Positions 4,070-4,379 of a DNA stretch of 15,944 nucleotides are shown piece after piece; the stretch's first letter is position 1; every line of letters starts with the position of its first letter. The DNA is taken from IMG/VR virus record IMGVR_UViG_2713897073_000008; one strand, given 5' to 3'. This stretch comes from a virus (taxonomy: Duplodnaviria; Heunggongvirae; Uroviricota; Caudoviricetes). The position numbers were made by a program, and so were the translations under genes. The notes under the pieces were generated by a model, which saw nothing but the letters and a program-made list of their open reading frames with translations, was not told the DNA's origin and did not search any database.

Positions 4070-4144
4070 TGGAGCGGGCAGCGGGAATCGAACCCGCATC
4101 ATCAGCTTGGAAGGCTGAGGTAATAGCCATTATGCGATGCCCGC
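4070..4144 (-). tRNA. tRNA-Gly (anticodon UCC)
   Basis: Reverse complement folds as a cloverleaf: acceptor GCGGGCA/UGCCCGC, anticodon loop CUUCCAA, T-loop GGUUCGAUUCC, 3' CCA encoded. Near-identical to E. coli glyT-type tRNA from memory. Confidence 0.9.
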
Positions 4145-4147
4145 ATA

Positions 4148-4223
4148 TGGTGCCGACTACCGGAATCGAACTGGTGACCTACTGATTACAAGTCAGTTGC
4201 TCTACCTACTGAGCTAAGTCGGC
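4148..4223 (-). tRNA. tRNA-Thr (anticodon UGU)
   Basis: Reverse complement GCCGACUUAGCUCAGUAGGUAGAGCAACUGACUUGUAAUCAGUAGGUCACCAGUUCGAUUCCGGUAGUCGGCACCA: canonical cloverleaf, anticodon loop CUUGUAA, CCA encoded. Confidence 0.9.
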
Positions 4224-4225
4224 AC

Positions 4226-4302
4226 TGGACCGCCACCGGGGACTCGAACCTCGCACACTCAACTTAAAGAGTTGACGCTCTTTCCTGATGAGCTAGTGGC
4301 GG
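4226..4302 (-). tRNA. Atypical tRNA-like gene; canonical fold gives anticodon UUU (Lys) with non-canonical C33 (a register shift would give UCU, Arg)
   Basis: Reverse complement CCGCCAC-UA-GCUC-AUCAGGAAA-GAGC-G-UCAAC-UCUUUAA-GUUGA-GUGUG-CGAGG-UUCGAGU-CCCCG-GUGGCGG-U-CCA: 7-bp acceptor stem (C1-G72), 4-bp D-stem with GG in D-loop, 5-bp anticodon stem, T-stem with one A/C mismatch, CCA encoded. Only 2 nt and 1 nt from the neighbouring tRNAs. Confidence 0.55.
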
Positions 4303-4303
4303 T

Positions 4304-4379
4304 TGGTGGCCCTTGCTGGATTTGAACCAGCGACCTGGCGATTATGAGTCGCTCGCTCTCACCACTGAGCTAAAGGGCC
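4304..4379 (-). tRNA. tRNA with anticodon CAU, most like tRNA-Ile2 (lysidine-modified, AUA-decoding; ileX/ileZ type) rather than elongator Met
   Basis: Reverse complement GGCCCUUUAGCUCAGUGGUGAGAGCGAGCGACUCAUAAUCGCCAGGUCGCUGGUUCAAAUCCAGCAAGGGCCACCA; very similar to E. coli ileX as I recall it. Anticodon loop CUCAUAA. Confidence 0.8.

Follow-up and report, generated by a model that had tools for sequence, protein, structure and literature searches.

Clusters of tRNA genes lying just after the antiterminator gene Q are already known in lambdoid phages. The closest described example is the ileZ-argN-argO cassette of Shiga toxin (Stx) phages of the 933W / Stx2 type, which occupies the slot downstream of Q and upstream of lysis or toxin genes, while in SfI, P21, Sf6 and ST64T it is filled by other tRNAs (PMC3636060), namely an Asn(GUU)-Thr(UGU) pair, placed in SfI directly after the late promoter and terminator, for which codon bias has been proposed to explain the ACA-reading member and not its partner (PMC3636060). 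Here we describe a cluster of four tRNA genes at positions 4070-4379 (minus strand) of a 15,944-nucleotide stretch from a Caudoviricetes record (IMG/VR IMGVR_UViG_2713897073_000008; the whole stretch is called the window below). This cassette is a mosaic of an Stx-phage-type ileZ with its promoter, a remodelled argN, and the host genes thrU and glyT. It works like, and is a relative of, the Stx ileZ-argN-argO cassette, from which it departs in two defining features, having neither an Arg anticodon on its second gene nor argO. The cassette is common, being annotated in hundreds of public records, and is not a new kind of element; in the literature searched (on ileZ/argN/argO and PhiR47_1) no paper on its composition was found.

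In the window ARAGORN calls four tRNAs and no more, all of them on the minus strand, and each scores above the gathering score (29 bits) of the Rfam RF00005 covariance model:

4304..4379, minus strand: tRNA-Ile2, anticodon CAU, ileZ type (ARAGORN; Rfam 72.5 bits; PGAP tRNA-Ile)
4226..4302, minus strand: atypical Lys-like tRNA, anticodon UUU (ARAGORN Lys(ttt); Rfam 43.8 bits)
4148..4223, minus strand: tRNA-Thr (UGU), exact copy of thrU (ARAGORN; Rfam 73.8 bits)
4070..4144, minus strand: tRNA-Gly (UCC), glyT with T11->C (ARAGORN; Rfam 56.8 bits)

The spacers between them measure 1 nt (4303), 2 nt (4225-4224) and 3 nt (4147-4145), and in the identical DNA of Escherichia coli strain 99-3165 RefSeq/PGAP labels the genes tRNA-Ile, tRNA-Lys, tRNA-Thr and tRNA-Gly. 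Both programs thus agree with a sequence-only reading made earlier from the letters, which had described four minus-strand tRNAs with gaps of 1-3 nt, and its observation that all four anticodons decode A-ending codons also stands. In tRNA-Ile2, G1-G2-C3-C4-C5 of the acceptor stem pair with G68-G69-G70-C71-C72, which includes the pairs C4-G69 and C5-G68 used by TilS on lysidine-dependent Ile2, and the tRNA is a predicted reader of AUA after lysidine modification of its CAU anticodon. The Lys-like tRNA has a 7-nt anticodon loop (U32-C33-U34-U35-U36-A37-A38) on a perfect 5-bp stem, together with C1-G72, the discriminator U73 and the T-stem mismatch A51.C63. Every oddity pointed out beforehand (UUU, C33, C1-G72 and the T-stem A/C mismatch) is therefore in the sequence, while the anticodon UCU that had been entertained for this tRNA would require an impossible register, the 5-bp stem fixing the 7-nt loop. 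The T-stem A.C mismatch is not abnormal in itself, because host thrU natively has one as well. Covariance-model scores were adopted for the atypical tRNA because minimum-free-energy folding of single tRNAs missed the cloverleaf even for thrU and ileZ; some weak, sub-threshold Rfam matches near the cluster are due to chance.

The origin of each gene can be traced. From the -35 hexamer to the CCA end and the 1-nt spacer that follows, tRNA-Ile2 is 100% identical to Stx2-phage ileZ (76/76 over the gene), as opposed to about 92% identity with the K-12 chromosomal Ile2 genes. The second gene aligns with argN without gaps and is identical at 64 of 77 positions; seven of the 13 differences fall in the anticodon arm, which reads UCAGC-CUUCGAA-GCUGG in argN and UCAAC-UCUUUAA-GUUGA here, so that UUU with C33 stands in place of UCG. 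The remaining scaffold, i.e., acceptor stem, D arm, T arm with its A.C mismatch and U73, is common to the two tRNAs. Covariation lends this scaffold weak support, with a single compensatory pair (G30:C40 -> A30:U40) and 49 of 500 shuffles scoring as high. tRNA-Thr is identical to K-12 thrU at 76/76 positions plus one flanking nucleotide on each side, and tRNA-Gly matches K-12 glyT at 74/75 (75/75 in most cassettes), the T11->C change producing a C11.A24 mismatch in the D stem. The two stand in their chromosomal order, Thr then Gly, and the 3-nt spacer between them, TAT, consists of the nucleotide that natively follows thrU and the two that precede glyT, which argues that tyrU and a 116-nt spacer were cleanly removed. 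The sequence-only reading had held that the cluster is not the chromosomal thrU-tyrU-glyT-thrT arrangement, and indeed the cluster lacks tyrU, thrT, tufB and the 116-nt spacer, the site is a prophage and the promoter that of a phage; to this must be added that the Thr and Gly genes derive directly from that operon. The chromosomal operon itself is still found elsewhere in the same genome (at two places in the record).

Intermediate arrangements suggest how the mosaic was assembled. A scan of IMG/VR for the argN-type T arm gave 122 matches, 91 of which show Ile2-Lys-Thr-Gly with spacers of 1, 2 and 3 nt, 12 show Ile2-Lys-argO, where the Lys-like tRNA has a 1-nt D-stem deletion, and six show Ile2-argN(UCG)-argO. 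The last two forms make a likely order of events one that starts from an Stx-phage-type ileZ-argN-argO cassette, whose argN anticodon arm would then have been altered to UUU with C33, after which a segment of the tufB-operon leader of the host, carrying thrU and glyT, would have taken the place of argO, with tyrU and the spacers excised. Replacement in this slot has left traces elsewhere, since the Stx2 phage Stx2a_F349 retains at about 1344-1368, after tR' and upstream of ileZ, the first ~24 nt of an SfI/P21-type tRNA-Asn(GUU) (SfI 439-463), which indicates that tRNA cassettes in this slot get replaced. The cassette is in this respect a clear and datable case of a phage capturing host tRNA genes (thrU, glyT) unchanged and trimming them to near-zero spacers. 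SfI and its relatives share with it the post-Q slot and the inclusion of a Thr(UGU) gene; unlike the host-identical Thr of the window, however, the Thr of SfI has diverged as a phage tRNA, and its anticodon stem is altered and shorter.

Three signals for transcription surround the tRNA genes:

4389..4417, minus strand: sigma-70-type promoter TTGCAA-17 nt-TATTAT (consensus scan; the -10 ends 9 nt before tRNA-Ile2)
4504..4524, minus strand: intrinsic terminator upstream of the cassette promoter (8-bp hairpin, then a T run)
3847..3862, minus strand: intrinsic terminator in the gap between cassette and holin gene (GC-rich hairpin, then a T run)

The promoter, identical to that upstream of ileZ in Stx phage, is exact in 86 of 114 cassettes, and the others keep TTGnnn-17-TATTAT at the same distance with a different spacer sequence. 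Retention of the hexamers across unrelated upstream DNA, with a changed spacer, is the pattern expected of a working promoter, and the sigma70 promoter that had been proposed for the cluster is probably active. Stx phage has an analogous terminator 3' of argO, and the terminator at 4504..4524 is possibly a tR'-like element, by analogy with the pR'-tR'-tRNAs layout of SfI and Stx phages. Placement in the late transcript, also proposed beforehand, does not follow from this copy, in which no late promoter (pR') was identified upstream of the 4524-4504 terminator within the window and the late genes are largely deleted; the SfI and Stx phage layout suggests such membership by analogy. With its own promoter and flanking terminators, the cassette may be regarded as an autonomous unit, through which Q-modified polymerase could read. 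RefSeq places a 36-amino-acid 'antiterminator' open reading frame (ORF) at 4437-4547 (minus strand), overlapping the terminator at 4524-4504; this ORF is probably either a remnant or an artefact of annotation. Between tRNA-Gly and the downstream terminator lies a perfect 16-nt inverted repeat (3938-3953 / 3995-4010, with 41 nt between the arms), overlapped by a 38-amino-acid ORF (3892-4008, minus strand); the start of the stretch downstream of tRNA-Gly is common to most cassettes.

The host element is a defective lambdoid prophage of E. coli, and the cassette lies in the Q-to-lysis slot, as had been proposed by comparison with ileZ-argN-argO of Stx phages. The slot is bounded by:

6173..6529, minus strand: antiterminator Q gene, upstream boundary (Pfam Phage_antitermQ, E = 1e-44; RefSeq)
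3562..3777, minus strand: P21-type holin S gene, downstream boundary (Pfam Phage_holin_2_1, E = 1e-35)

Along the minus strand the order is Q, three reverse-oriented cargo genes, terminator, promoter, the four tRNAs, terminator, holin, ydfR, and portal and tail fragments; Q, tRNAs and holin share one strand, and the three cargo genes separate Q from the cassette. In 64 of 88 related loci a holin homologue follows the cassette. Apart from one 5.4-kb deletion, the window matches a prophage of strain 99-3165 at 100% identity, and intact head and tail genes are missing from both versions. The deletion junction lies at about 3253-3255, where ydfR now adjoins a portal fragment; relative to 99-3165, the lysozyme gene, an Rz-like lysis gene, the terminase gene and the portal N-terminus are gone.

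The cassette is widespread in E. coli. At least 80% of the 421-nt cassette region was found in 552 of 5426 complete genomes (~10%) and the Lys-like tRNA in 781 of the 5426 (~14%), and ileZ-type genes at >=99% identity occur in 2729 records. Isolated phages also carry the cassette (vB_EcoM-606R7, vB_EcoS-689R5 and PhiR47_1). Across 185,579 species representatives the Lys-like gene is confined to E. coli and Shigella, and neither there nor in IMG/VR was a form or ancestor with U33 found. C33 and UUU are invariant in 100 Lys-like copies, position 32 being C, U or A; the commonest allele has the loop CCUUUAA, and the window allele, UCUUUAA, is rare (3 of the 122 viral matches, 11 of the 5426 genomes). 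The exact glyT sequence is present in most cassettes, the C11 allele of the window being a minority (14 of 99), and in every anticodon arm sampled among viral copies the Thr is identical to thrU.

Codon usage was compared with 40 K-12 core genes. In the prophage genes of the window ATA makes up 23% of Ile codons against 5% in the host (odds ratio (OR) 5.2), ACA 35% of Thr codons against 11% (OR 4.3), and GGA 18% of Gly codons against 9% (OR 2.4). The complete phage PhiR47_1 shows the same three enrichments (OR 3.05, 2.24 and 2.23, respectively; all p < 1e-7), alike in early, late and accessory genes, and the three cargo genes adjoining the cluster have the codon pattern of other prophage genes. 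By contrast, AAA is not enriched among Lys codons (64% in the window against 75% in the host, OR 0.61; PhiR47_1 OR 0.82, not significant), so codon supply fits three of the four tRNAs, the readers of AUA, ACA and GGA. AGA, AGG and CGA are still more enriched, at ~10-12 per thousand codons against 1-3, and these rare Arg codons are left unserved where Thr(UGU) and Gly(UCC) stand for argO (UCU). The match between anticodons and codon bias put forward in the sequence-only reading accordingly stands for AUA, ACA and GGA, and falls for AAA and for the most over-used of the rare codons, which the cassette no longer reads. An extreme of this usage is found in a very AT-rich ParA-like gene (10498-11544, minus strand; GC 0.31-0.37), where ACA accounts for 52% of Thr codons and GGA for 41% of Gly codons; the annotation of the reference strain places a Hok/Gef pseudogene near it.

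Taken together, the locus is best read as a moron-type tRNA cassette with its own promoter and flanking terminators in the Q-to-holin gap, in which a useful trio serves codon supply and the Lys-like tRNA is a crippled passenger, a reading that we consider probable, if well short of certain. The trio of Ile2(CAU), Thr(UGU) and Gly(UCC) would provide extra gene copies of low-abundance readers of AUA, ACA and GGA and would thereby make AT-rich phage and cargo genes of horizontal origin easier to translate, and in intact relatives it might also help during late transcription; the Lys-like tRNA would be co-transcribed and processed and would contribute little to decoding.

The pattern of conservation across copies is consistent with this division between trio and passenger. 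A neutral reference taken from all loci was abandoned, as their flanks are mosaic and not homologous, and constraint was assessed instead on the 68 loci that share the downstream non-coding flank of the window. Nucleotide diversity in these is 0.0188 in the flank, 0.0075 in Gly, 0.0073 in Thr and 0.0047 in Ile2, so that these three genes fall 2.5-4 times below the adjacent non-coding DNA, whereas the Lys-like tRNA (0.0215) shows no purifying selection relative to the flank. Damaging changes are present in frequent Lys-like alleles, in one haplotype combining U8C, C4U and C11U and in a separate one with a D-stem deletion. The sequence-only reading had allowed that this tRNA might be rejected as a pseudogene; the window allele is not, PGAP labelling it tRNA-Lys, but about half of the copies elsewhere are unannotated. 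Of 40 genomes sampled evenly from the 781, RefSeq annotates the gene as tRNA-Lys in 19 and leaves it without annotation in 21, the latter belonging to the haplotypes with the D-stem deletion or U8C.

Like a functional elongator tRNA-Lys(UUU), the Lys-like tRNA carries UUU in a 7-nt anticodon loop closed by a 5-bp stem; unlike one, it lacks U33 and A73. A73 is the discriminator preferred as an identity element by LysRS, and the U73 found here was inherited from argN. U33 is near-invariant in elongator tRNAs (PMC5041475), and E. coli TsaBCDE is unable to make t6A37 on a U33C tRNA (PMC8887486). To judge from these features, the gene is most likely a once-reshaped, crippled passenger and not a mainstream decoder. 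The widespread pipeline label 'tRNA-Lys' then denotes an anticodon-switched argN derivative with C33 that is probably a poor decoder, a mislabelling that bears on tRNA gene counts and on codon-adaptation models.

Several observations weigh against this account. Counted as segregating sites per nucleotide, Thr (0.12) and Gly (0.09) lie close to the flank (0.12), and only the frequency-weighted diversity is lower. The Arg tRNAs were lost from the cassette though AGA, AGG and CGA are more enriched than the codons it serves, and codon enrichment of this kind is general in AT-rich acquired DNA and no proof of selective benefit. The main Lys-like allele keeps perfect Watson-Crick acceptor and anticodon stems and an anticodon that never varies, which a purely decaying gene need not do; the compensatory pair in its remodelled anticodon arm points the same way, though weakly, as a single event. 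The window copy itself carries the derived changes C11.A24 in Gly and U32 in the Lys-like tRNA, which may weaken those two tRNAs, and few phage genes are left there to benefit, because this prophage has lost the lysozyme, the terminase and most structural genes.

Some of these points would be expected if the whole cassette were a functionless relic, hitch-hiking in a degraded prophage that has had too little time to lose it. The prophage is indeed defective, with 5.4 kb from lysozyme to portal missing relative to 99-3165 and no intact head or tail genes in either version; two of the four window tRNAs have derived and probably harmful changes, and pair-breaking variants are scattered through all four tRNAs across copies. 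However, a relic would not readily explain the 2.5-4-fold lower diversity of Ile2, Thr and Gly, the compensatory double change in Gly across copies (C6:G66 -> U6:A66), promoter hexamers kept in otherwise unrelated upstream sequences, a cassette left intact while neighbouring phage genes were deleted, or its carriage by inducible, isolated phages, and we regard this explanation as unlikely.

A second alternative, to which we give a similarly low weight, is counter-defence, the cassette tRNAs replacing host tRNAs cut by defence nucleases of competing mobile elements. The main candidates are two nucleases of the Toprim type, P2 Old and PARIS AriB, whose targets include Thr(UGU) and Lys(UUU), and the Lys-like gene would be a cleavage-resistant lysine tRNA on an arginine scaffold, comparable to the resistant phage tRNAs already described (T5 tRNA-Lys against PARIS, phage tRNA-Thr against P2 Old). 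When P2 Old aborts lambda, tRNA-ThrU(UGU) is the first tRNA to be cut and Lys(UUU) is a further substrate; cleavage falls 3' of the C in CNG motifs that are paired in the anticodon stem, and phage Thr tRNAs resistant to it rescue lambda (PMC12445682). The substrates of AriB are Lys(UUU), Thr(UGU) and Asn(GUU), which it cleaves at U36-A-A-U-C|A41, and the change U39A abolishes this (PMC12409363); HepS of Gifsy-1 likewise cleaves Thr tRNAs (PMC13043305). The UUU and UGU anticodons of the cassette are those of Old and AriB targets, and two of its four specificities thus bear on the question of tRNA counter-defence in temperate lambdoid phages. In addition, the Lys-like tRNA departs from host tRNA-Lys at sites on which AriB and Old depend: its sequence is U36-A-A-G39-U40-U41, positions 28-30 are CAA and positions 40-42 UUG, and so it has neither the Old nor the AriB motif, its parent argN having a paired CAG/CUG that it lacks. 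Since AAA is not codon-limited, a Lys tRNA needs another rationale, and in SfI/P21-type phages the slot is occupied by Asn(GUU) and Thr(UGU), the latter having in SfI a resistant-like arm (no CNG pair, a G27.A43 mismatch shortening the stem, and G39).

Against this, the cassette Thr is unchanged from host thrU, keeps both cleavage motifs and is predicted to be sensitive, and over-expression of host thrU gives little or no protection from P2 Old (PMC12445682). Neither Gly(UCC) nor Ile2 has been reported as a substrate of Old or AriB. The evolution of the Lys-like tRNA resembles that of the non-coding flank, and decay has affected about half of its alleles; its C33 and U73, which do not occur in the characterised resistant tRNAs, argue against efficient modification, charging and decoding, and its Thr partner is no variant of the host tRNA. 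Absence of the cleavage motifs is itself weak evidence, as most tRNAs lack them by chance. That the Lys-like gene is in fact a working lysine tRNA, made by an anticodon switch on an arginine scaffold and resistant to AriB, P2 Old or PrrC, appears very improbable; were it true, lambdoid phages would have in such a tRNA a means of escaping the classic P2-lambda interference and related systems. FaRel2, whose targets are tRNA-Gly and tRNA-Thr, was set aside as a selective agent: the system is not one of E. coli, and copies identical to the host genes would be no less sensitive to it.

The SfI gene deserves a separate remark. Its tRNA-Thr(UGU), at 519-594 of the SfI stretch compared, has the anticodon stem GUCGC/GCGAA, and its absence of a paired CNG, G27.A43 and G39 are the traits reported for P2-Old-resistant phage Thr tRNAs; its partner, Asn(GUU), is another AriB/Old substrate.

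The remaining features of the window lie outside the cassette. The three cargo genes (4612-6159, plus strand) are divergent from it. The first encodes a 303-amino-acid protein whose PADLOC match is PDC-S42, a defence candidate still unvalidated (E = 3e-53), with no Pfam match and no relative of solved structure, and the 81- and 128-amino-acid ORFs match only PHROGs without assigned function; a functional tie between the cassette and the PDC-S42 candidate was rejected, the two being neighbours in no more than 6 of the 80 related loci. At 8322-10095 (minus strand) lies a RosmerTA defence toxin-antitoxin pair, comprising RmrA (8322-9443, minus strand; PADLOC E = 4e-201), with a helix-turn-helix and a metallopeptidase domain, and RmrT (9454-10095, minus strand; PADLOC E = 7e-92). 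Finally, positions 41-244 (minus strand) give a full-length match to the Rfam small RNA IS009, at 129 bits against a gathering score of 117.

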